A model generated the notes under the pieces. The model saw only the letters and a list, made by a program, of their open reading frames with translations, searched no databases and was not told the origin of the DNA. A DNA stretch of 22,725 bases from a virus. Lineage: Duplodnaviria; Heunggongvirae; Uroviricota; Caudoviricetes. Below, piece after piece: positions 4,967 to 22,725 of the stretch; the first letter of the stretch is position 1, and every line of letters begins with the position of its first letter. The translations under genes were made by a program, and so were the position numbers. The stretch is from IMG/VR virus record IMGVR_UViG_2681813227_000023, positions 1-22,725 of that record; one strand, given 5' to 3'.

Positions 4967-5167
4967 ATGGAAATCATTACACGTATTGATGCCGCAAAGC
5001 GCGGACTTAAACGCTACTACACCGGAAAACCATGTAAGCACGGACATGACAGTGAACGCTGGGTTTACAACGGACACTGTGTTGAGTGCACCATGGAATC
5101 AAACCGTCGTATCAGGGCAGAGATTAAGCAGATCATGATTAATTCCTCCCCACAACATTCAAGCTGA
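4967..5167 (+). CDS. Small putative zinc-binding protein (66 aa; C-x-H-G-H ... C-x-x-C), cII-position gene
   Basis: ATG at 4967 with AGGG 9 nt upstream (the ORF-track start at 4904 is TTG). KPCKHGH...HCVEC motif. Function unknown. Confidence 0.45.
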   Translation: MEIITRIDAAKRGLKRYYTGKPCKHGHDSERWVYNGHCVECTMESNRRIRAEIKQIMINSSPQHSS

Positions 5168-5182
5168 TAGCGGAGATTAATC

Positions 5183-5998
5183 ATGAGCAGACATGCAACA
5201 GATTGGGCCTGGGAGACAGATCCGGGTAGCTCATCATTAAAGCTCATACTGCTCTCGATGGCTGACAGAGCCGATGAATATAACCTCTGCTACCCCAGCA
5301 TAGAACGCCTCGTTAAAGACACTTGCCTGAATAAAAAAACCGTGCAGGCCGGGCTTATATCGCTCATGAAAATGGGGCTTATTTCAGATACCGGAGAGAG
5401 AAAGGGAGCGACAAAAAGAGTGCGGGTTTTCTCTCTTAATATAACCAAAAACGGGAACATTAAAGGCAACCGGGAGGGGGGCAATGAACCCGAAAACGGT
5501 AATGTTACCGAAAACGGGAATATACCCAAAAACGGGATGTTGAATGATCCCAAAAACGGGATGTTGAATGATCCCAAAAACGGGATCCAGAACCAGTCAT
5601 ATAACCAGTCATTTAACCAAGAGAGGGAGAGCAGGACAAAAAGCGGGGATTCTGTGCCTCATGACCCCGGAGCAAACAACGCCGTGATGAATAACTTTGT
5701 TCCTCCTGGTGGGCCAGGGCAATTAGGCAAATTTGTCATGCATGAACAATGGCAGCCATCAGATGACTTTCTTCGGAAAAGCTCATTGCAGGGGATCTAC
5801 CTGGACAGTCTGCCAACGGCACAGGAACTTGCAGAGTTCAGAATTTACTGGATGGCTGAGGGTAAGGCATACCATCAGGCACAGTGGGAGCAGAAGCTGG
5901 CAAGGCGGCTGCAGATTAGCAGACAGAAGCAATCAACATTACCTGATAACAACGTTCCGCACTGGAACAGCCCTGAAGCATGGGAGGATTTCTTGTGA
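5183..5998 (+). CDS. Replication initiator (lambda O-like role): N-terminal winged-helix, internal iteron-encoded repeats, DnaT-like C-terminus (271 aa)
   Basis: N-terminal ...LKLILLSMADRADEYNLCYPSIERLVKDTCLNKKTVQAGLISL resembles phage replisome-organiser HTH domains. Central low-complexity KNG-repeat region is encoded by DNA iterons. GGAG SD before ATG 5183. Sits directly upstream of the P-like gene. Confidence 0.7.
   Translation: MSRHATDWAWETDPGSSSLKLILLSMADRADEYNLCYPSIERLVKDTCLNKKTVQAGLISLMKMGLISDTGERKGATKRVRVFSLNITKNGNIKGNREGGNEPENGNVTENGNIPKNGMLNDPKNGMLNDPKNGIQNQSYNQSFNQERESRTKSGDSVPHDPGANNAVMNNFVPPGGPGQLGKFVMHEQWQPSDDFLRKSSLQGIYLDSLPTAQELAEFRIYWMAEGKAYHQAQWEQKLARRLQISRQKQSTLPDNNVPHWNSPEAWEDFL
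5445..5586. repeat. Iteron array (six copies of approximately CC(C/A)AAAACGGGA) inside the initiator gene: candidate replication origin
   Basis: Copies at about 5445, 5489, 5507, 5525, 5548 and 5572, the last three within an almost exact 24-bp tandem repeat (atcccaaaaacgggatgttgaatg); further short AACCAGTCAT repeats follow. Confidence 0.6.
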
Positions 5999-6780
5999 AC
6001 AACGTTTTTACCGCGATACAAAACCGTGACGGAGAAGCCCTTTCTCGCATGTCAGGTTATGAGCATCAGTACGTCAACAATGACAATGTGGTGAACATGT
6101 CAGCAGAGAGGCTTGTTGATGCCCTTTTTAAACAGCTGAAACAACTGTTTCCGGCGGCAGTGGTAACCAACCTGAAGACGCCAGAGCAGGAAGTTGCTGC
6201 AAAACAGCAGTGGATTGCTGCGTTTGCCGAAGGGGGGATCCGAACCCGTGAACAGGTTTCTGCTGGTATGCGCCACGCCCGCGCCAGTGAATCTCCGTTC
6301 TGGCCGTCTCCAGGGCAATTTATCAAGTGGTGCAAAGACAGCAAGATGGTTCTTGGCGTCACCATTGACGATGTGATGGCGGAGTTTCACCGGTACAGCA
6401 AGGAAAAAAGTTTATATCCTGGTGGTCCCGAAAGATTCCCGTGGCGACATCCGGTTATGTACTGGGTCGTATGTGATACCCGCCGTGCAATGTATCAGCG
6501 CCAGCTTAGCGAGATTGAGGTTGAGAAACACGCGCGCAGGCTGCTCGATGATTGGGCGAAAAAGGTGGCTTCCGGACAGCAGATACCCGATCCGGTGATC
6601 AGCATACAGGCAAAGCCAGAGCCCATGAGTACGCCTCCGGACACAGGGAGAGACGTTTACCATCCACCAGGGCGAAGTTTCGGGTGCATGCCTAACGCCG
6701 CCACCCTTGGGGGAATAACACCGGCGCAGTGGCTGATGGAGGAATACAGGCGGGGAAAGGCGGCAGGATTTATCAAGTAA
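5980..6780 (+). CDS. Replication protein P-like helicase loader
   Basis: KQQWIAAFAEGGIRTREQVSAGMRHARASESPFWPSPGQFIKWCKD aligns with lambda P (RRQWVLAFRENGITTMEQVNAGMRVARRQNRPFLPSPGQFVAWCRE). Start is ATG 5980 or GTG 5995 (GTGA overlap with the initiator stop). Confidence 0.8.
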   Translation: MGGFLVNNVFTAIQNRDGEALSRMSGYEHQYVNNDNVVNMSAERLVDALFKQLKQLFPAAVVTNLKTPEQEVAAKQQWIAAFAEGGIRTREQVSAGMRHARASESPFWPSPGQFIKWCKDSKMVLGVTIDDVMAEFHRYSKEKSLYPGGPERFPWRHPVMYWVVCDTRRAMYQRQLSEIEVEKHARRLLDDWAKKVASGQQIPDPVISIQAKPEPMSTPPDTGRDVYHPPGRSFGCMPNAATLGGITPAQWLMEEYRRGKAAGFIK

Positions 6781-6817
6781 TACCAGCGCGATAGCGCATT
6801 TTTTTACGTCTCAATAA

Positions 6818-6832
6818 TTACCCATCAGGTAA
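6818..6832. promoter_or_regulatory. Operator-like palindrome TTACCcatcaGGTAA downstream of the P-like gene
   Basis: Same TTACC-N5-GGTAA motif, outside the immunity region. Confidence 0.45.
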
Positions 6833-6879
6833 CAAAACATTCTAAACTCTATTGATTTCGTGTCTTATGTGGTTTTTAA

Positions 6880-6894
6880 TTACCTTAGAGGTAA
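6880..6894. promoter_or_regulatory. Operator-like palindrome TTACCttagaGGTAA just upstream of the 6898 start codon
   Basis: Same motif, 62 bp from the 6818 site; its right arm overlaps the ribosome-binding region of the next gene. Confidence 0.45.
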
Positions 6895-6897
6895 ATC

Positions 6898-7251
6898 ATG
6901 AGAAAACAGATACAGGCTCTTGGTCGACTCAAAACAGGCCAGATGAACAAAACAGAATCTGCGTATTGCCAGCACCTTGAGCAGCGTAAACGTGCAGGGG
7001 AAATCGCCTGGTATCGATTCGAGGGTATCAAGTTGCGGTTAGCTGACAACTGCTTCCTGACTGTAGATTTTGCCGTGATGTTGGCTGACGGGCAGTTGGT
7101 GATGGTGGACGTTAAGGGAAGTAAGTCAGTCTTTACTGACGATGCGAGAGTCAAGATGAAGGTTGCGGCAGACAGCTATCCGTTTGTCTTTCAGGTTGCT
7201 TATCCAAAACCTAAAAAGCTCGGTGGTGGATGGGAGGTTGAGGAACTATGA
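6898..7251 (+). CDS. DUF1064-like phage protein (117 aa)
   Basis: Recalled resemblance to DUF1064 phage proteins (ESAYCQHLEQRKRAGEIAWYRFEGIKLRL...FLTVDFAVMLADGQLVMVDVKG). Stop overlaps the HNH gene start. Confidence 0.5.
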   Translation: MRKQIQALGRLKTGQMNKTESAYCQHLEQRKRAGEIAWYRFEGIKLRLADNCFLTVDFAVMLADGQLVMVDVKGSKSVFTDDARVKMKVAADSYPFVFQVAYPKPKKLGGGWEVEEL

Positions 7252-14547: not shown

Positions 14548-14754
14548 ATGTGCATGGGTAGCTCACCGTCAGTGCCTGCAACACCAGAAGTTCAGGCAGC
14601 ACCACAGGAGCAGGATGCCGCCGTTGTTGATGCCCGCAACGAAGAAACTCGTCGCCGTCGCGCTGCTGCTGGTCGTAGTTCTACGCTGCTTACCGGTTCT
14701 CAGGGCGACACATCAACCGCTAATACCAGCGGTAAAACGCTACTTGGTCAGTAA
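14548..14754 (+). CDS. Hypothetical small Arg-rich protein (68 aa) preceding the portal gene
   Basis: ATG with GGAG SD; the leader GGAGTCATTGA is repeated identically before the portal ATG. Arg-rich stretch EETRRRRAAAGR. The overlapping 14528 frame looks less coding-like. Confidence 0.45.
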   Translation: MCMGSSPSVPATPEVQAAPQEQDAAVVDARNEETRRRRAAAGRSSTLLTGSQGDTSTANTSGKTLLGQ

Positions 14755-14768
14755 CCGGAGTCATTGAA

Positions 14769-16448
14769 ATGGCGGAAACAACTAAAGAGCGATTGAACAA
14801 ACAGTTCGCACAACTTGAAAGCGAGCGTCAGTCGTTCGAGCCGCACTGGCGCGAGTTGAGTGATTACATCAACCCGCGTGGTTCCCGCTTTCTGACTTCT
14901 GAGGTCAACCGTAACGATCGACGCAATACACGCATTATTGATTCAACCGGGACTATGGCGGCGCGCACTCTCGCCAGCGGCATGATGTCAGGCATCACAA
15001 GCCCCGCGCGTCCGTGGTTTCGCCTGGCTACGCCAGATCCTGAAATGATGGATTATGGCCCTGTTAAGTTGTGGCTTGAGGCAGTGCAGAACCGCATGAA
15101 CGATATGTTCAATAAGTCGAATCTCTATCAGTCGCTGCCGCAGTTATACGGAAGCCTCGGCACATACAGCACCGGTGCAATGGCGGTACTGGAGGATGAC
15201 GAGGACATCATTCGCACAATGCCATTCCCGATAGGCAGTTACTACCTTGCTAACTCACCTCGTGGCAGTGTGGACACCTGTTTTCGCAAGTTCTCTATGA
15301 CTGTTCGTCAGCTTGTTCAGGAGTTCGGGCTAAATAACGTCAGCGAATCCGTAAAAAGCATGTGGGAAAGCGGCACCTACGAGAAGTGGATTGAAGTGAT
15401 GCATTCGGTTTACCCGAACATTGACCGCGATACATCGAAGCTGGATAGCAAGAACAAGCCATTCAAATCGGTTTATTACGAGGTTGGCGGCGATAACGAC
15501 AAGTTGTTGCGTGAGTCCGGATTCGATGAGTTTCCAATTATGGCTCCGCGCTGGGAAGTTAACGGCGAAGATGTTTATGGATCATCATGCCCGGGTATGC
15601 TGGCGCTTGGACCTGTTAAGGCATTGCAGCTTCTCCAGAAACGCAAGTCGCAGTTGATTGATAAAGCCACCAATCCGCCGATGGTTGCTCCGACTTCCCT
15701 CAAGAATCAGCGCGCCTCCCTTCTTCCTGGCGACATCACGTATATCGATCAGATTACTGGTCAGGATGGTTTCAGGCCTGCTTATCTGGTTAACCCCAGT
15801 ACAGCAGATTTGGTGGCAGACATTCAGGACACTCGTCAAATCATTAACAGCGCCTACTTTGTCGATCTGTTCATGATGTTGCAGAACATCAATACCCGCT
15901 CGATGCCTGTGGAAGCGGTGATCGAAATGAAAGAAGAAAAACTTCTGATGTTGGGGCCGGTTCTGGAGCGTCTGAACGACGAATGTCTTAATCCTCTCAT
16001 TGACCGCGCTTTCTCGATGATGGTGCGTAAAAACATGCTGCCGCCACCGCCTGACGCGATGGAAGGTATGCCCCTGAAGGTCGAATACATTTCCGTCATG
16101 GCTCAGGCGCAGAAGTCTATCGGCCTGTCCAGTCTGGCGTCTACGGTCAACTTCATTGGTCAACTTGCGCAAGCGAAACCAGAAGCTCTCGACAAACTCA
16201 ACGTTGATCAGGCGATCGATGCATTCGCTGATATGTCCGGAGTGTCTCCAACCGTCATTGTTCCGCAGGAACAGGTTGAGCAGGCTCGCCAGCAACGGGC
16301 ACAGCAACAACAGCAGCAACAAATGATGGCGATGGGGATGGCGGCGGCACAGGGTGCCAAGACGCTAAGCGAAGCTAAAACTTCGGATCCGAGTGTTTTG
16401 TCAGCTATGGCGAATGCAGTTAGTGGTCAGGGTGGGCAATCACAATGA
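14769..16448 (+). CDS. Portal / head-to-tail connector protein, T7 gp8-like (559 aa)
   Basis: Size, position after terminase, and Gln/Ala/Met-rich C-terminus (QARQQRAQQQQQQQMMAMGMAAAQGA) resembling the T7 gp8 C-terminus. Confidence 0.75.
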   Translation: MAETTKERLNKQFAQLESERQSFEPHWRELSDYINPRGSRFLTSEVNRNDRRNTRIIDSTGTMAARTLASGMMSGITSPARPWFRLATPDPEMMDYGPVKLWLEAVQNRMNDMFNKSNLYQSLPQLYGSLGTYSTGAMAVLEDDEDIIRTMPFPIGSYYLANSPRGSVDTCFRKFSMTVRQLVQEFGLNNVSESVKSMWESGTYEKWIEVMHSVYPNIDRDTSKLDSKNKPFKSVYYEVGGDNDKLLRESGFDEFPIMAPRWEVNGEDVYGSSCPGMLALGPVKALQLLQKRKSQLIDKATNPPMVAPTSLKNQRASLLPGDITYIDQITGQDGFRPAYLVNPSTADLVADIQDTRQIINSAYFVDLFMMLQNINTRSMPVEAVIEMKEEKLLMLGPVLERLNDECLNPLIDRAFSMMVRKNMLPPPPDAMEGMPLKVEYISVMAQAQKSIGLSSLASTVNFIGQLAQAKPEALDKLNVDQAIDAFADMSGVSPTVIVPQEQVEQARQQRAQQQQQQQMMAMGMAAAQGAKTLSEAKTSDPSVLSAMANAVSGQGGQSQ

Positions 16449-16741
16449 CAGATTACGAAGACGATCAACTGAAAGAAGAAAACGCCCGTAAGCAACGTGA
16501 CATGGCACAGCGTGAAATTGATGACATTCGCTTTGTCATGAGCAGTGAACAGGGGCGTCGGGTTGTCTGGTCGGTGCTGGAGAAAGGCCGTGTGTTTTCC
16601 GCTATCTCACCGATGGACGCTATGGCAATGGCATTTAATGAGGGGCAACGCAATCTGGCGCTGGAACTGTTTCAGCGCGTTATGGCGCATTGCCCTGAAC
16701 AGTATTTGAAGATGGCCAAAGAGGCCAGTGAACAGGAGTGA
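16445..16741 (+). CDS. Hypothetical morphogenesis-module protein (98 aa)
   Basis: ATGA overlap with the portal stop; stop 2 nt before the scaffold start. Confidence 0.5.
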   Translation: MTDYEDDQLKEENARKQRDMAQREIDDIRFVMSSEQGRRVVWSVLEKGRVFSAISPMDAMAMAFNEGQRNLALELFQRVMAHCPEQYLKMAKEASEQE

Positions 16742-16743
16742 TC

Positions 16744-17439
16744 ATGAATTTATTTGAGCGTTTGCTGTATCGCCGTCTTTGCAATGAGCAACCAGTCGAT
16801 GGTGGAGCAGCTCCGGCTGCGTCAGAACCGTCAGCGCCTGCAGGTGATAACCCTGCTCCAGTTGGTGATCCATCACAACAGGAAGGTGATAAGCCACAAC
16901 CTGTTGCTGATGGCGATAAACCTGCTGATGACAAAAAGCCTGAAAACGATAAGCAGGATGAAAAAAAGGACGGCGATAAACCAGAGGGTGCGCCTGAAAA
17001 GTACGAGTTTCAGGCTGCCGAAGGCGTAGAGCTGGATACAGAAGCGTTGAAGGAATTCGAGCCGGTGGCGCGAGAACTAAACCTGACCAACGAGCAAGCG
17101 CAAAAGCTGGTTGATGCTTATCCGAAGATTCTGGCAGGTGTTCAGCAGCGCCAGGCAGAAGCCTGGCAGAAAACAACCGAGCAGTGGGCTGCGGATGTAA
17201 AAGCCGACAAAGAAATCGGTGGCGACAAGTTGATTTCTAACCTTAGCGCCGCACAGCGTGCGCTTGACCAGTTCGGGACACCTGAACTCAAAGAATATCT
17301 GAACACCACCGGGCTGGGTAATCACCCTGATCTGGTCAAAACGTTCGTGAAAATCGGAAAGGCGATGTCTGAAGATGGCATGGTCACCGGTGGTAATGAA
17401 GGCCAGCGTAGTGCGGCCGAAGTGCTCTATGGCAAATAA
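16744..17439 (+). CDS. Putative scaffolding protein (231 aa)
   Basis: Highly acidic, Pro/Asp/Lys-rich low-complexity N-terminal half and helical C-terminal half, located between portal and major capsid genes. ATG 16744 with AGGAG SD. Confidence 0.6.
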   Translation: MNLFERLLYRRLCNEQPVDGGAAPAASEPSAPAGDNPAPVGDPSQQEGDKPQPVADGDKPADDKKPENDKQDEKKDGDKPEGAPEKYEFQAAEGVELDTEALKEFEPVARELNLTNEQAQKLVDAYPKILAGVQQRQAEAWQKTTEQWAADVKADKEIGGDKLISNLSAAQRALDQFGTPELKEYLNTTGLGNHPDLVKTFVKIGKAMSEDGMVTGGNEGQRSAAEVLYGK

Positions 17440-17453
17440 GAGAGGAAATGACA

Positions 17454-18440
17454 ATGGCTGTTAAAGGCTTAACTGCGCTAACGCTGGCTGACTGGGGTAA
17501 GCGCGTCGATCCAAACGGGAAAGTCGATAAGATTATCGAGCTTCTCAATCAAACTAACCCAATTCTTCAGGATATGCCTTTTGTTGAAGGAAACCTTCCT
17601 ACCGGACACCGAACCACCATTCGTTCTGGTTTACCTTCCGCTACCTGGCGTTTGCTGAACTATGGCGTACAGCCAAGCAAATCAACCACAGTGCAGGTCA
17701 CCGATTCCATTGGCATGCTGGAAACCTATGCTGAAGTCGATAAGTCTCTGGCTGATCTGAACGGTAATACTGCCGAATTCCGTCTGTCTGAAGACCGAGC
17801 ATTTATTGAAGCGATGAATCAGGCGATGGCGCAGACACTGTTTTACGGTGATTCCAGCGTTAACCCTCAGCAGTTTATGGGACTGTCCTCCCGATATTCC
17901 AGCCTGTCTGCGGGTAATGCTCAGAACATCATTGATGCTGGTGGCACGGGTACAGATAACACTTCAATCTGGTTAGTGGTGTGGGGCGAAAACACCGTGC
18001 ATGGCATCTTCCCGAAAGGACAGAAGGCTGGCATTCAGATGGAAGATAAAGGCCAGGTGACACTGGAAGATGCTAATGGCGGCAAGTACGAAGGTTATCG
18101 TACCCATTATAAGTGGGACAACGGGCTGACATTACGTGACTGGCGCTATGTAGTTCGTATCGCAAACATTGATGTCAGTAATCTTGACGCTCCTTCTACT
18201 GCCGCGAATATCGCAAAACTGATGATTCGTGCCCTTCATCGAATCCCAAATCGTGGGATGGGACGTCCTGTTTTCTACATGAACAGAACCATTAACGAAG
18301 TGCTTGACCTGCAATCTCTGGAGAAGAGTTCTCTGGCGATCAGCGTGAAAGAGACAGAAGGCGAATGGTGGACAGCACTTCGTGGTGTGCCGATTCGCGA
18401 AACTGACGCACTTCTGGAAACAGAAGCCCGCGTGGTGTAA
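17454..18440 (+). CDS. Major capsid protein (328 aa from ATG 17454; ATG 17448 also possible)
   Basis: About 330-aa protein after the scaffold gene, strong GAGAGGA SD, and a terminator after the next two small genes, as expected for a highly expressed coat gene. Confidence 0.75.
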   Translation: MAVKGLTALTLADWGKRVDPNGKVDKIIELLNQTNPILQDMPFVEGNLPTGHRTTIRSGLPSATWRLLNYGVQPSKSTTVQVTDSIGMLETYAEVDKSLADLNGNTAEFRLSEDRAFIEAMNQAMAQTLFYGDSSVNPQQFMGLSSRYSSLSAGNAQNIIDAGGTGTDNTSIWLVVWGENTVHGIFPKGQKAGIQMEDKGQVTLEDANGGKYEGYRTHYKWDNGLTLRDWRYVVRIANIDVSNLDAPSTAANIAKLMIRALHRIPNRGMGRPVFYMNRTINEVLDLQSLEKSSLAISVKETEGEWWTALRGVPIRETDALLETEARVV

Positions 18441-18491
18441 CGCCTGTTATTAACCTGTGGGCCGCAACAGGCCCACTAATGGAGAAAGAAG

Positions 18492-18929
18492 ATGATCACC
18501 GACAAACTGTTGATGTTCTCCGAAGCACAGGCGGTAACTGATACCGCGGCTTCTACTGACGTAATCGATCTCGGTCCAATTGACGGAAACCGTCGCGATA
18601 TCGGTGTGGGTTACCCGCTTGAGTTTTGGGTGCTGGTTAACGAAGCCGCCACGGCAAGTGGTGAGGCAACTGTAAACATCCAGTTGCAGACGAGTGAGAA
18701 TAACAGCTCATGGTCCACTATTTATGATAGTGGCGCACTGGCAAAGGCTACCCTGACAGCAGGTAAACGAGTTGTTTCTGCAAAGGTGCCTGCCGGTGTT
18801 CTGCGATATCTGCGTGTTAACTACTCCGTCGCAACTGGCCCACTAACGGCCGGCAAATTCACTGCGGGTATCAGTCTGGATGTTGATGCCAATACGCCGT
18901 ACCCGATCCGCTCAAAAGTAACTGGTTAA
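18492..18929 (+). CDS. Putative capsid-associated structural protein (145 aa)
   Basis: Position immediately after the capsid gene; beta-rich composition. No confident family assignment. Confidence 0.45.
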   Translation: MITDKLLMFSEAQAVTDTAASTDVIDLGPIDGNRRDIGVGYPLEFWVLVNEAATASGEATVNIQLQTSENNSSWSTIYDSGALAKATLTAGKRVVSAKVPAGVLRYLRVNYSVATGPLTAGKFTAGISLDVDANTPYPIRSKVTG

Positions 18930-18939
18930 GGTGATATCG

Positions 18940-19275
18940 ATGTCAGGTGAGAAACCAAGATACCGCGTTCTGCGCCTCTCTCATATCCATAACACACTGT
19001 GGCCGGAGGGGGCAGAAATCGAATACGAAGGTGAGCCTGGTAGCGCACTGGAACCTGTTAACGATGCAGCCAGACAGGCAAAAGCAAAGGTAGCAGGAAA
19101 GGTGTCTATGGCAGCAACCAGCACCAAAATCATCAACGATGTGTCAGATGATGGTGAACTGGATAAGCTCCGTGAAGAGTACGAATTGCTCTTTAACGAG
19201 AAGCCACACCATAACGCTAAAGCCGAAACGCTCCGCGAGAAGATCGCAGATAAGCGTAAAGAACTGGGCGTGTAA
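18940..19275 (+). CDS. Hypothetical structural-module protein (111 aa)
   Basis: ATG 18940 with AAGGTGA SD; followed by a strong terminator. Confidence 0.45.
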   Translation: MSGEKPRYRVLRLSHIHNTLWPEGAEIEYEGEPGSALEPVNDAARQAKAKVAGKVSMAATSTKIINDVSDDGELDKLREEYELLFNEKPHHNAKAETLREKIADKRKELGV

Positions 19276-19293
19276 GCCTCGCGAATCCGACAA

Positions 19294-19313
19294 GGGGCTT
19301 CGGCCCCTTTATT
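19294..19313 (+). terminator. Rho-independent terminator (GGGGC-TTCG-GCCCC plus TTTATT)
   Basis: GC stem with UUCG tetraloop and U-tract directly after the capsid-gene cluster. Confidence 0.65.
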
Positions 19314-19325
19314 GCAGGAGTGTAT

Positions 19326-19649
19326 ATGGAACTCGTAAACCTCAAAACCGGCACTGACAGCTACCAGGATGAGAGCGGAGAAACCAGAACTCGCGATGAA
19401 TACCCGTGGGGGCTGTGCATCACTCTTAATAACGACACATTGAATAAGCTGAAGGCGCAACCTCAGGGCGTCGGAACAGAAGTGATGATAACTGCAAAGG
19501 CTGTTATTCGAGGCCTGTCTGCCAGAGAAACTGACGATGGTGTTAATCGCAGCGCCGATCTGCAGATCACTGATATGGCGATCGCTCCTGTTTCCGGGGA
19601 TGTAGAAAAATCAGCGGCTGAAACTCTGTACGGTAACGGAGGTGAGTGA
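19326..19649 (+). CDS. Hypothetical structural protein (107 aa) sharing a C-terminal SAAE(V/T)LYG motif with the scaffold protein
   Basis: ATG 19326 with AGGAG SD. C-terminus ...EKSAAETLYGNGGE versus scaffold ...QRSAAEVLYGK. Confidence 0.45.
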   Translation: MELVNLKTGTDSYQDESGETRTRDEYPWGLCITLNNDTLNKLKAQPQGVGTEVMITAKAVIRGLSARETDDGVNRSADLQITDMAIAPVSGDVEKSAAETLYGNGGE

Positions 19650-20254
19650 TGGCCTCTGTAGTAGAGATCTGTAATCGTGCGCTGTCCAATATTGGCAATA
19701 GCCGCAGCATTAACAGCCTGACGGAAGCCAGCAAGGAAGCGGGGGAATGTTCGCTGCACTTTGAGGCCTGCCGTGATGCTGTGCTTTCTGATTTTGACTG
19801 GAACTTTGCTACCAAACGCGTGGCGCTTGCAGATACGAGCAATCCACCGCCTGACTGGGAATATGCGTACCAGTACCCGTCCGATTGTCTGCGCATTACT
19901 GAAATTATGCTTCCTGGTGTACGCAATCCAACAGCAGCAATGCGCGTTCAGTACGAAGTTGGTGCAGACACCAACGGAACAGGAAAATTGATCTATACAG
20001 ACCAGCCGCAGGCATGGCTCAAGTATGTCTCTCGCGTTTCAGATGTGAACATGTTTGATGCCATTTTTATGGAGGCGCTGGCCTGGCGTCTTGCGGCAGC
20101 CATTAACATGGCGCTGACTGGGAATGCGGATCTCGGTACATTTGCTCTCAATATGTACAATCGCGTGATTCTTAGTGCTGGTTCGCATAGCCAGAATGAA
20201 TCACAGGAACCACAGCCACCGGTTGACGAGTTTACCATTGCGAGGTTGTCCTGA
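19649..20254 (+). CDS. Putative head-tail adaptor / tail tubular protein A-like (201 aa)
   Basis: Size and position match T7 gp11; N-terminal VEICNRALSNIG...INSL resembles the gp11-type N-terminus (VNDILASIG...VSTL). TGATG overlap with the upstream stop. Confidence 0.5.
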   Translation: MASVVEICNRALSNIGNSRSINSLTEASKEAGECSLHFEACRDAVLSDFDWNFATKRVALADTSNPPPDWEYAYQYPSDCLRITEIMLPGVRNPTAAMRVQYEVGADTNGTGKLIYTDQPQAWLKYVSRVSDVNMFDAIFMEALAWRLAAAINMALTGNADLGTFALNMYNRVILSAGSHSQNESQEPQPPVDEFTIARLS

Positions 20255-22725
20255 TGGCTATCAGTTGGATCCAGCCCAGCTTTGCTGGTGGTGAGATTGG
20301 ACCGTCGTTGTACGGTCGTATCGACATGGCGAAGTACCAGGTGGCATTGCGCAAGTGCGATAACTTTATCGTGCGGCAGTATGGCGGCGTTGAGAATCGA
20401 CCTGGTACGCGTTTTGTCGGTGCCGCCAAATACCCAAATCGGAAATGCCGCCTGATCCCGTTCCAGTTCTCGACGGTTCAGACCTATGCTCTGGAGTTCG
20501 GACACCAGTACATGCGCGTTATCAAAGATGGTGCGTTGGTGCTGAACAGCAGCAATGTTATTTATGAAATTGCCACGCCATATACTGAAGCCGATCTGTT
20601 CCGAATTAAATTCACGCAAAGCGCAGACGTGCTTACGCTTGTTCATCCGGCATACCCGCCGAAAGAGTTGCGTCGCTATGCGCATGACAACTGGCAACTG
20701 GTTGATGTGGTAACGAAGAACGGACCATTTGAAGATATCAATATTGACGAGTCAGTGACGGTTTATGCCAGCGCCAGCACCGGGACAATTACGTTAACGG
20801 CAAGCGCCTCTATTTTTGGCGCGGAGCAGGTAGGCAAATTGTTCTATCTGGAACAGCCAGCAGTGGATTCAGTACCGGTATGGGAAACCAGTAAGAGTAC
20901 GTCGATTGGCGATATTCGCCGTGCAGACAGTAACTACTATCGCGCCGTTACAGCAGGCAAAACAGGTACTTTGCGCCCTTCGCATACAGAAGGCACATCA
21001 TGGGATGGCTGGGGCGGATCCGGTGATGATGATACTGGCATTGAGTGGGAATATCTGCACAGTGGTTTTGGCATTGCCCGTATCACTGCTGCAAATGGAA
21101 CTACTGCAACTGCCGAGGTGATTTCCTATATCCCTTCGCAGGTAGTTGGCGAGGATAATGCCAGCTATAAATGGGCTAAATATGCCTGGAACAGTGTTAA
21201 TGGTTATCCTGGCACTGTTGTTTATTATCAACAACGTCTTTACTTCGCCGCATCGACTGCGTTCCCTCAGACTATCTGGGCCAGCCGTACCGGGGATTAT
21301 AAGGATTTTGGCAAAAGCAATCCTACGCAGGATGACGACAGAATTATCTACACCTATGCCGGGCGTCAGGTTAATGAGATCCGTCACCTGATTGATGTTG
21401 GTTCTCTGGTGGCGCTGACTTCCGGAGGTGAGTACGTCATCACCGGCGACCAGAACAAAGTGTTAACCCCATCATCATTTGCATTCAGCTCTCAGGGATC
21501 AAATGGCTCAAGCAACGTCCCACCAATTGCCGTAGCGAATATTGCTCTGTTCGTCCAGGAGAAAGGCAGTGTTGTCCGTGATCTGGCCTACTCATTCGAT
21601 GTTGACGGCTATCAGGGGAACGACCTGACCATCCTTGCCAATCATCTTTTTCAGAAGCACAGCATTGTTGACTGGTGCTTCTCTATTGTCCCTTACTCCA
21701 GCGCCTTCTGCATTCGTGATGACGGTAAATTACTGGTGATGACCTATTTGCGTGATCAGCAGGTTTTTGCATGGGCACCACAATCCAGTACCGGAAAATA
21801 TGAAAGCACATGCAGTATCAGCGAAGGCAATGAAGATGCGGTGTATTTCGTCGTTAACCGAACCGTTAACGGGCAAACAGTGAGATACATCGAGCGGCTG
21901 TCCAGCCGTTTATTTACCAGCGATGAAGATGCTTTCTTTGTTGATTCTGGCCTTAGCTATGATGGAAGAAATACGTCTGACAGAACGATGACCATCACTG
22001 GTGGCTCTGGCGAATGGGATTATCGCGCGGAATATACAATCAGTGTTTCTGGTGGTGCGTACTTCACCAGTAGTGATGTCGGCGCGCAACTACAGTTCCC
22101 TTATGCCGGAACTGATCCTGATACTGGCGATGAAGTGTCAAAAGAATTACGTTGCGACATTATTTCTGTAACCAGTAATACCGCAGTAGTGGTTCGTGCT
22201 AACAGGAACGTCCCGCCATCCCTCAGGAATGTGTCCACCACGAACTGGCAGATGGCGCGCCGGACATTTGGAGGCCTGTCTCATCTTGAAGGCCAGACCG
22301 TAAACATTCTCTCTGATGCGAACGTGGAACCACAGAAAGTGGTTTCCGGAGGTGCCGTCACGCTGGAATCTCCGGGGGCTGTAGTGCACATCGGCCTGCC
22401 AATAACTGCTGAATTCGAAACACTGGATATCAACATTAACGGACAGGAAACGCTGCTGGACAAAAAACAGGTGATCCCCTCCGTTACTCTGGTTGTGAAT
22501 GCCAGTCGCGGCATCTGGGCGACTACGCCTGGCGGTAAATGGTACGAATATCCACAGCGTGAATTCGAGTTCTACGATGATCCTGTTGATGATGCTACCG
22601 GAAAAGTAGAAGTGAAACTGGACAGTAACTGGGGCAAAAACGGACGTGTAAAAATCCGTCAGCTTGATCCGTTGCCGCTGTCTGTTCTTGCCGTTATTCC
22701 TCGCCTTACTGTTGGGGGATTCTGA
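20254..22725 (+). CDS. Putative tail tubular protein B / nozzle protein, T7 gp12-like (823 aa)
   Basis: Size and position match T7 gp12; N-terminal PSFAGGEIGPSLYGR...GGVENRPGT parallels T7 gp12 NLKGGISQQPD...GLQKRPP. Stop codon is at the window end. Confidence 0.55.
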   Translation: MAISWIQPSFAGGEIGPSLYGRIDMAKYQVALRKCDNFIVRQYGGVENRPGTRFVGAAKYPNRKCRLIPFQFSTVQTYALEFGHQYMRVIKDGALVLNSSNVIYEIATPYTEADLFRIKFTQSADVLTLVHPAYPPKELRRYAHDNWQLVDVVTKNGPFEDINIDESVTVYASASTGTITLTASASIFGAEQVGKLFYLEQPAVDSVPVWETSKSTSIGDIRRADSNYYRAVTAGKTGTLRPSHTEGTSWDGWGGSGDDDTGIEWEYLHSGFGIARITAANGTTATAEVISYIPSQVVGEDNASYKWAKYAWNSVNGYPGTVVYYQQRLYFAASTAFPQTIWASRTGDYKDFGKSNPTQDDDRIIYTYAGRQVNEIRHLIDVGSLVALTSGGEYVITGDQNKVLTPSSFAFSSQGSNGSSNVPPIAVANIALFVQEKGSVVRDLAYSFDVDGYQGNDLTILANHLFQKHSIVDWCFSIVPYSSAFCIRDDGKLLVMTYLRDQQVFAWAPQSSTGKYESTCSISEGNEDAVYFVVNRTVNGQTVRYIERLSSRLFTSDEDAFFVDSGLSYDGRNTSDRTMTITGGSGEWDYRAEYTISVSGGAYFTSSDVGAQLQFPYAGTDPDTGDEVSKELRCDIISVTSNTAVVVRANRNVPPSLRNVSTTNWQMARRTFGGLSHLEGQTVNILSDANVEPQKVVSGGAVTLESPGAVVHIGLPITAEFETLDININGQETLLDKKQVIPSVTLVVNASRGIWATTPGGKWYEYPQREFEFYDDPVDDATGKVEVKLDSNWGKNGRVKIRQLDPLPLSVLAVIPRLTVGGF

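Follow-up and report, generated by a model that had tools for sequence, protein, structure and literature searches.

A scaffold-type C-terminal peptide shared by a small orphan head-module protein of phiV10/epsilon15-type podophages

Introduction

To our knowledge, the element with which a scaffold protein binds the coat is its extreme C-terminus in every well-studied case. In phage P22 this element is a C-terminal helix-turn-helix, the remainder of the scaffold being elongated and flexible, and we know of no second P22 protein that shares it. In other systems a C-terminus that is shared with the scaffold, or equivalent to its coat-binding end, brings a second protein into the procapsid, as is seen for the tails of prohead proteases and for nested protease/scaffold pairs (HK97 gp4; lambda C/Nu3; P2 gpO). 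Encapsulin cargo-loading peptides are likewise short and portable C-terminal tags on flexible linkers, which engage the lumenal side of an HK97-fold shell and co-evolve with that shell. Here we describe a C-terminal motif, SAAE(V/T)LYG, which is common to two proteins of the head module, a 231-residue scaffold and a 107-residue 'gp10-like' protein, encoded by a 22,725-nucleotide stretch of viral DNA (positions 1 to 22,725 of IMG/VR record IMGVR_UViG_2681813227_000023; hereafter the window). A close precedent is that of staphylococcal phage 80alpha, whose scaffold places an amphipathic 11-residue helix and a 5-residue hook on the N-arm of an HK97-fold coat protein, at its inner face (Dearborn et al. 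2017, PMC5644958). The CpmB protein of SaPI1 is unrelated to the 80alpha scaffold but has a near-identical tail, with a RIIK motif, that occupies the same coat site (PMC5644958).

The locus studied here is like the 80alpha/CpmB system in that two unrelated proteins share only a C-terminal peptide (of about 16 residues in that system) and that the small one would mimic the scaffold as a second ligand of one site. The differences are nonetheless considerable. CpmB comes from a parasitic island and redirects capsid size, whereas the phage itself supplies the gp10-like protein, the family of which is conserved and runs to thousands of clusters; the motif is RIIK there and A-x-x-L-Y-G here; CpmB is a helical dimer while the gp10-like body is beta-rich; and binding has been demonstrated for 80alpha but is something that we infer for the gp10-like protein. 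The comparison with prohead proteases is also partial: the gp10-like gene is frequently found in the 'protease slot', right after the portal gene, but its product has about 105 residues and neither a peptidase domain nor a catalytic signature. Moreover, the scaffold and gp10-like genes are separate, non-homologous and not nested, so that selection, rather than common DNA, would be what preserves the shared tail. In contrast to encapsulins, we are dealing with a virus that has a true scaffold and packages DNA, with another motif and with no cargo enzyme attached, and the P22 element has no sequence similarity to the tail motif. Finally, gp10 of epsilon15 (PDB 3J40 chain N, PF21628) is of the same family as the window protein, and the role of capsid staple once given to it has been withdrawn. 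Our literature searches found no paper noting a tail shared by the scaffold and gp10-like proteins. What is new here is the tail motif, the large orphan family that bears it, its co-variation with the coat and the boundaries of the cassette in which it lies; the principle is known from 80alpha/CpmB, protease tails and encapsulins.

Results

A scaffold and an unrelated small protein end in the same peptide

The scaffold gene (16744..17439, plus strand; ATG at 16744, stop codon at 17437-17439), a homologue of epsilon15 gp6 and phiV10 p09, encodes a protein that ends in …NEGQRSAAEVLYGK (last ten residues RSAAEVLYGK). Its motif, SAAEVLYG, comprises residues 223-230 (17410..17433, plus strand) and is preceded by the flexible linker VTGGNEGQR. 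The gp10-like gene (19326..19649, plus strand; AGGAG before the ATG at 19326, stop codon at 19647-19649) encodes a protein that ends in …GDVEKSAAETLYGNGGE, or in its shorter form KSAAETLYGNGGE. Here the motif is SAAETLYG (residues 96-103; 19611..19634, plus strand), which is joined to the protein body by a variable linker, APVSGDVEK (19584..19610, plus strand), modelled by AlphaFold2 with low confidence, and is followed by NGGE. Translation reproduces to the residue the shared motif that a first-pass annotation of this DNA had pointed out, the two cores being identical at seven of eight positions. When the whole proteins are compared by BLASTP, the 10-residue tail (7/10) is the sole stretch that aligns, and comparison of the family bodies with hhalign returns a homology probability of 0.4%. 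The two bodies are unrelated, and only the extreme C-terminal peptide is common to both. The same annotation had held that the encoding DNA differs, and the codons agree: 14 of 24 nucleotides are identical between the two tail cores and a different codon is used at five of the seven residues in common, which places the match at the level of the peptide and not of a recent DNA copy.

How far such a match might arise by chance was judged from the C-terminal 16 residues of the 52 annotated coding sequences of phiV10. Among 1326 pairs, that of the scaffold and the gp10-like protein is the only one with 7/8 identity, a value that was never reached in 20,000 random tail pairs. Elsewhere among the real genes of the window and of phiV10, [LMF]Y[GP] does not occur in the last 16 residues. 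Taken alone, the match in a single genome is borderline after multiple testing; it is the comparative data across phages that make it decisive.

The two tails co-vary across distant phage lineages

Pairs of scaffold and gp10-like proteins were gathered from annotated relatives, from species-level genomes (15 loci, by three-sequence alignment) and from IMG/VR. The IMG/VR search was started from BPP-1, a start from the window protein having given 80 near-identical E. coli prophages that were useless for studying co-variation. In epsilon15 the scaffold ends in …SDLISAFYPKK and gp10 in …KELKDAFYPDGEDD (core LKDAFYPDG), not in SAAETLYG. The BPP-1 scaffold ends in GDARRLYAASNMNP (core ARRLYAASNMNP) and its gp10-like protein in SSAAQRLYGASSMSA (core AQRLYGASSMSA), such that RLYAASNM in the former corresponds to RLYGASSM in the latter. 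DARAAKLYDKS in the BcepC6B scaffold is matched by EQRAAKFYANTPTT (core RAAKFYA) in the gp10-like protein, and PWNRMYPDM in that of CP2 by KYARMYADDPSMKD (core ARMYAD). Further pairs, with the scaffold tail given before the gp10-like tail, are SDPAKKLFPNMN (core DPAKKLFPNM) and KDPAKAMYPSMLG (core DPAKAMYPSM) in locus L095, AKRFYPNSNMN and ARALYPNSSMN in L105, TAEEIMYGSKD and SAEEVIYGDK in L126, RDAATVLYGE and QDAATLLYGSD in L145, STADLLYPSSS and PAADLLYPSK in L146, and TAAEVLYGG and SAAEVLYGS in L166.

These likenesses were put to a permutation test in which 12-residue windows were anchored on the aromatic residue, the two anchor positions were left unscored and each coat cluster was given one representative. 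With coats clustered at 90% identity (n=33), matched pairs scored 11.0 and mismatched pairs 4.7; the corresponding values were 10.3 and 2.5 at 80% (n=23) and 8.3 and 1.5 at 70% (n=16), with p<=5e-5 at each of the three levels, and 6.75 and 1.18 at 60% (n=8; p=0.017). The data set contains about 16 independent lineages. Across distant phage lineages, then, the scaffold and gp10-like tails co-vary, albeit imperfectly.

Both tails lie within an exchangeable cassette

Both tails also follow the coat in the mosaic structure of the head genes. Protein identity between the window and epsilon15 is 80% for the portal, 66% for gp5, 72% for the scaffold and 84% for gp11, which flank a block in which it is 43% for the coat, 34% for gp8, 37% for gp9 and 42% for gp10; at the nucleotide level, identity is 40-55% within the block and 75-82% on either side. 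In a sliding DNA comparison of the two genomes the left break falls at about 17395, inside the scaffold gene, just after …VTGG and just before the tail, and the right break coincides with the gp10 stop and the gp11 start. The divergent block thus consists of the scaffold tail, the coat, the cement protein, gp9 and the gp10-like protein, with a tail at each edge, and constitutes an exchangeable capsid-shell cassette (17395..19650, plus strand). Partial Mantel tests over 63 loci point the same way: scaffold-tail similarity follows coat identity when the scaffold body is controlled for (partial r=0.49, p=5e-4), the reverse relation being weaker (r=0.18), and the gp10 tail is correlated more strongly with coat identity (r=0.40) than with its own body (r=0.19).

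If tails follow the coat, then recombinants are predicted in which a scaffold body has acquired a foreign tail together with a foreign coat, and such a recombinant was sought among the 120 closest scaffold homologues (at least 80% identical). An AAEV[LI]YG tail is present in 119 of them. The exception, scaffold P0224, carries the epsilon15-type tail SDLVSAFYPKK and is encoded on a metagenomic contig, L186 (Logan ERR3179340, positions 5001-7806). The portal (94% identity), gp5 (89%), scaffold body (87%) and gp11 (93%) of this contig are of the window type, whereas its scaffold tail (86%), coat (95%), gp8 (98%) and gp9 (73%) are of the epsilon15 type, as is its gp10-like protein (62%), which ends in KELKDAFYPAGGE (…DAFYPAGGE). 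L186 is a natural recombinant with an epsilon15-type cassette in a phiV10-like backbone, and both of its breakpoints are placed as in the comparison of the window with epsilon15.

The tail motif is a hallmark of the gp10-like family

An exhaustive profile search assigned 3457 clusters at 50% identity to the gp10-like family, and nearly all of the 150 representatives listed are about 95-132 residues long. The family consists of a single domain of about 100-112 residues with conserved YPWGLxIxL and LQITD blocks, and is found in the head modules of podophages with a GP7-type coat. The first-pass annotation had named conservation of the motif in orthologues as a point on which its proposal could fail. 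The motif is kept: [LMIFV][YFW]x occurs in the last 20 residues of 133 of 141 diverse full-length representatives (94%), against a background of 2.9% in other 20-residue windows of the same proteins. LYG is the most frequent form, and enterobacterial homologues have K[ST]AA[EDQ]TLYG. The linker ahead of the motif varies in both sequence and length, as do the 0-6 residues that follow it, and the gp10-like proteins of six loci (L111, L148, L151, L153, L164 and L175) carry two copies of the motif in tandem. Conservation of the motif amid variable flanks, and its duplication in tandem, are what one expects of a short linear docking motif that is flexibly tethered. The tandem-tail subgroup, to which P0249 also belongs, is exemplified by the ending …ATMLYGSNSENSRIDGLSNALYGGS, and its cognate scaffolds end in …ASALYSNQQS.

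There are 103 phage records with a coat of the GP7-type family; a gp10-like protein was detected in about 60 of these. No gp10-like gene is detectable in the head modules of Pseudomonas phages Ab31 and AF or of Microcystis phage Mel-JY33, the scaffolds of which end in …ERMYPNYPA, …EAVLWPTMQQQ and …EERLYGKTT…, respectively. Since scaffolds keep the motif where there is no gp10-like gene, it is primarily the scaffold's own, with the gp10-like protein as the copyist. A gp10-like gene that had been missed by tblastn was found in a Vibrio phage, where the tail DRAEQLYGPKS matches that of the scaffold, DRVSLLYPNDKTA. The position of the gp10-like gene in the module varies: it is found downstream of the coat in 41 loci, immediately behind the portal gene in 34 (in the order portal, gp10-like, (Bbp19-like), scaffold) and ahead of the portal gene in 5, such that the usual neighbour of the gp10-like gene is a gene for a 12-copy ring protein.

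The gp10-like protein is not the capsid staple

Pfam PF21628 covers the window protein over the whole profile (positions 1-98 of 98; E=1e-51, 173.6 bits against a cut-off of 27), and phmmer matches it to PDB 3j40_N, which is epsilon15 gp10 (E=2e-21). Judged by these matches it is a homologue of epsilon15 gp10 and of BPP-1 Bbp20; gp18 of the CP2-like phage PhiXacm4-11 is a further homologue. The AlphaFold2 model has a predicted local distance difference test score (pLDDT) of 78 and features a long beta-hairpin (residues 53-88, 17+17 residues) with small N-terminal elements, a disordered linker (pLDDT <50 at 92-96) and a weak terminal helix (97-102, pLDDT <50). It has no fold match in the PDB, 3J40 and jellyrolls included, and its matches in BFVD are members of its own family only. 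An AbrB/SpoVT-type swapped hairpin was considered for the core (G-L-x-I-x-L…L-G…G-x-x-V) and found no supporting Pfam or fold match. In two short ENA contigs (P0021 and P0117) the N-terminal part of a gp10-like protein is fused to a fragment of the ClpP type (PF00574), which probably reflects chimeric gene calling or a junction with another prophage.

The homologues of this protein go by the product name 'capsid staple protein' at NCBI, and PF21628 is called 'Major coat protein-like'. However, Hryc and Baker 2022 (PMC9207676) found that an AlphaFold2 model of the 111-residue epsilon15 gp10 is unlike the staple density, for which a 130-residue protein was the sole fit. With this reassignment epsilon15 gp10 lost the structure, location and function once ascribed to it, even though it had been 'putatively identified' in infectious virions, a result that we have at second hand from the same paper (Hryc and Baker 2022, PMC9207676). 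In the window, the Bbp16-like cement or decoration protein is the 145-residue homologue of epsilon15 gp8 (18492..18929, plus strand; PF21190, E=3e-48), which matches the cementing protein PDB 3j4u_H (E=6e-29) and the capsid decoration protein 8cjz_B (E=2e-22). PDB 8CJZ is the solved capsid of a relative, with a coat protein of 344 residues and a decoration protein of 130 residues, and PhiXacm4-11 is likewise decorated by a protein of the Bbp16-type family (preprint). By sequence, none of the solved cement proteins of BPP-1, 8CJZ and PhiXacm4-11 is a homologue of the gp10-like protein. The 145-residue protein is the real capsid staple or cement, and these comparisons show that the gp10-like protein is not an external staple. 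Its family's names appear to propagate the withdrawn epsilon15 assignment.

The scaffold and the surrounding head genes

Positions 16400-20300 of the window are 96% identical in DNA to phiV10, and by sequence the window carries the head-gene module of a temperate podophage of the phiV10/epsilon15 type (Uetakevirus). The gene map was obtained by transferring phiV10 and epsilon15 annotation by homology. The portal gene (14769-16448) and that for the Bbp19-like gp5 (16445-16741) precede the scaffold gene, which is directly upstream of the coat gene. The coat gene (17448..18440, plus strand) encodes an HK97-fold major capsid protein of the Pfam GP7 family (PF20911, E=7e-149; PDB 3j4u_A, 8cjz_Y and 3j40_A). 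The gp9 homologue (18940..19275, plus strand; phrog_590) has the transferred coordinates of phiV10 p12 and lies inside the exchanged cassette. Downstream of the gp10-like gene come those for the gp11 adaptor, which is tail tubular A-like (19649..20254, plus strand), and for the nozzle gp12 (20254 onward).

The first-pass annotation took the 231-residue protein to be the scaffold, and this is what it is by gene position and character. Its N-terminal region is long, acidic and proline-rich, and AlphaFold2 predicts an all-alpha segment (99-210) between disordered regions (13-98 and 211-223), all with low confidence, followed by a short terminal helix (224-229, pLDDT <50). The model, which was built with 49 close homologues, has a pLDDT of 41.6 and is too poor for fold comparison. 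RefSeq, NCBI and PHROG 458 label the protein a protease or peptidase, and the source of this label is PHROG 458 together with similarity to an uncharacterised Salmonella open reading frame. We found no peptidase or other Pfam domain (no peptidase family at E<=0.1) and no PDB relative in sequence or profile searches. A prohead maturation protease was considered and set aside: these negatives, taken with the helical or disordered prediction, make it probable that the label is wrong.

Between the gp9 and gp10-like genes there is a GC-rich hairpin, AAGGGGC-TTCG-GCCCCTT (19292..19309, plus strand), with a TTCG loop and a short T-tract (TATT) behind it. Rho-independent terminators are annotated at the equivalent place in epsilon15, and it is mainly on this account that the hairpin looks like a terminator or attenuator; a consensus terminator scan did not report it and its fold z-score is only -0.9. 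At the other end of the gp10-like gene, the stop codon overlaps the gp11 ATG (TGATG), which suggests translational coupling with a low-copy portal-vertex protein. Hairpin and coupling to the adaptor gene together hint at modest expression of the gp10-like protein. Both proteins with the shared tail are acidic, with isoelectric points (pI) of 4.4 for the gp10-like protein and 4.6 for the scaffold.

Further upstream, a gene for tRNA-Arg (anticodon TCT; 14044-14120) lies between the large terminase and portal genes on the minus strand, opposite to the head genes. A small open reading frame at 14548-14754 encodes a 68-residue epsilon15 gp3-like protein that starts with MCMG… and ends in …GKTLLGQ. 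A C-terminus of the form …TKTLLGG/…SLLGS is kept in its counterparts from Pseudomonas phages Ab31 and AF and Vibrio phage 1.021.A, which are very distant relatives, and that of Microcystis phage Mel-JY33 ends in …STVLGG. The N-termini of these proteins (MC…, MGKKVKKA…) presumably resemble those of T7 gp6.7 and gp7.3.

Discussion

The first-pass annotation had suggested that the small protein may use the scaffold's docking motif to enter procapsids, for example as an internal or ejection protein or a scaffold competitor. The comparative data lend strong support to the idea at the centre of this proposal, a scaffold motif by which a second protein addresses the same partner: the two tails co-vary, the motif is a family hallmark and the tails follow the coat in recombinants. 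We consider it probable that the gp10-like protein enters the procapsid on a scaffold-type coat-docking tail. The last ten or so residues of the scaffold (…SAAEVLYGK) would form a docking peptide for the coat-protein shell, namely a short stretch with helical propensity and, at its end, a hydrophobic-aromatic-small 'hook', carried on a flexible linker. The gp10-like protein would bear its own version of this peptide, likewise on a flexible linker, and would be recruited by it to the same coat site inside the assembling procapsid, where it would most likely act as a mini-scaffold or as a minor protein of the head interior, part of it being retained in the virion. The docking site would belong to the coat, and both peptides would be re-tuned when the coat changes, in which case the tails would be expected to co-vary and to recombine together with the coat gene. 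From the pattern of sequence change and the analogy with known scaffolds, there is a better than even chance that both tails dock at the same site of the coat shell, most probably on its inner face. What we infer is that the coat, and neither gp8 nor gp9, is the partner, that docking takes place on the inside of the shell, and that the gp10-like protein is encapsidated and has a role there. As to the fate of the protein, we weigh two possibilities about equally: retention in virions as a minor head protein of the interior, which would explain the epsilon15 virion proteomics, and a transient part as mini-scaffold or competitor, which would explain the acidity, the conservation and the absence from maps.

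Several observations weigh against this reading. The helices predicted for both tails have low AlphaFold2 confidence. In some loci the tails do not match, the scaffold having MFPxM and gp10 (L/M)YG in one clade, with L106, L110, L118 and L128, and the scaffold having LYPNQQ and gp10 LYG in L104 and L107. The presence of the gp10-like gene in only some of the records with a GP7-type coat means that its function is dispensable for some relatives. The gp10-like protein is acidic. The hairpin ahead of its gene and the coupling to the gene for a 12-copy adaptor suggest a low copy number, which is hard to square with the abundant virion band of about 12 kDa that was originally reported. Lastly, gp8 and gp9 are also inside the exchanged cassette, and the co-evolving partner could therefore be either of these and not the coat.

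It is possible, though less likely, that the docking is as we propose but that the gp10-like protein is a transient modulator of assembly, be it a mini-scaffold, a competitor that assists in displacing the scaffold at maturation or a chaperone that caps the scaffold site on free coat protein; it would leave together with the scaffold and be no genuine part of the virion. Such a role would suit an acidity close to that of the scaffold (pI 4.4 against 4.6), a gene that is a core part of the head module over very distant hosts, unlike fast-evolving cargo, and that is often in the slot beside the scaffold (34 loci), and the precedent of CpmB, a small second scaffold with the same tail. The gp10-like protein is also absent from all solved capsid maps of relatives, the withdrawn assignment excepted; however, a disordered or low-copy internal protein is compatible with absence from icosahedral maps, and epsilon15 gp10 has been reported, at second hand, from purified infectious virions. 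We regard it as unlikely that the tails bind each other or the scaffold body instead of the coat, which would make the gp10-like protein a scaffold-associated factor. A homotypic contact would also yield co-variation of two like peptides, and the cassette boundaries do not discriminate because both tails lie within them. Against this, scaffolds of relatives without a gp10-like gene retain the motif, and the tails track coat identity above the scaffold or gp10 bodies; in L186 the tail has been swapped and the scaffold body has not, which would break a tail-to-body contact, although a tail-to-tail contact would be unaffected. The scaffold C-terminus, furthermore, contacts the coat in characterised systems, namely 80alpha and P22.

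The older idea that the gp10-like protein is an external 'capsid staple' decoration protein, with an incidental likeness of tails, draws on the membership of PDB 3J40 chain N in the family and on the NCBI and Pfam names ('capsid staple protein', major coat protein-like). It is now very unlikely, given that the staple density fits the 130-residue protein only (Hryc and Baker 2022, PMC9207676), that the 145-residue window protein is the Bbp16-type cement of BPP-1, 8CJZ and PhiXacm4-11, and that the gp10-like model matches neither 3J40 nor any jellyroll; an incidental tail would, moreover, show no co-variation. Least probable of all, in our estimate, is that the tail is read outside the capsid, as a degron for a host protease or a tag for a chaperone, or that it is a chance resemblance or frozen relic. 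The tail is indeed short and C-terminal, as many degrons are, and the single-genome statistics are borderline, but even phages of closely related enterobacterial hosts have sharply different tails, which follow the type of coat, not the host. Chance is excluded by the 94% conservation in the family together with the excess of matched pairs (p<=5e-5), and the motif is followed by variable, often acidic residues, which sets it apart from known C-terminal degrons.

Taking all of this together, we favour the gp10-like protein as an internal head protein or mini-scaffold that docks by its tail. The broader proposition, that this family from podophages of Proteobacteria is a general class of proteins loaded into HK97-fold procapsids by a portable, scaffold-mimicking peptide, is a tentative one. 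If it were true, tailed-phage capsids would have a natural 'cargo-loading tag' that is re-tuned for each coat and travels with the coat gene as one cassette, and the tail would offer a means of packaging foreign proteins in them. A-x-x-L-Y-G would then be the long-unknown coat-binding element of epsilon15/BPP-1-type scaffolds. It is at present a candidate for the scaffold-coat docking element of epsilon15, BPP-1 and phiV10, model phages of electron cryo-microscopy (cryo-EM) that have so far lacked a defined scaffold-coat interface. Some annotations need correction: the scaffold should not be called a 'peptidase', nor the gp10-like protein a 'staple' or 'major coat protein-like'. The breakpoints that keep a 10-residue peptide with its partner gene provide a natural case of protein interfaces constraining phage mosaicism. 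There is also now a hypothesis for epsilon15 gp10, which was a capsid staple in the literature for 15 years and has been without a role since the 2022 reassignment: the broader proposition, if true, would make this orphan an internal head protein that acts in assembly or early infection.

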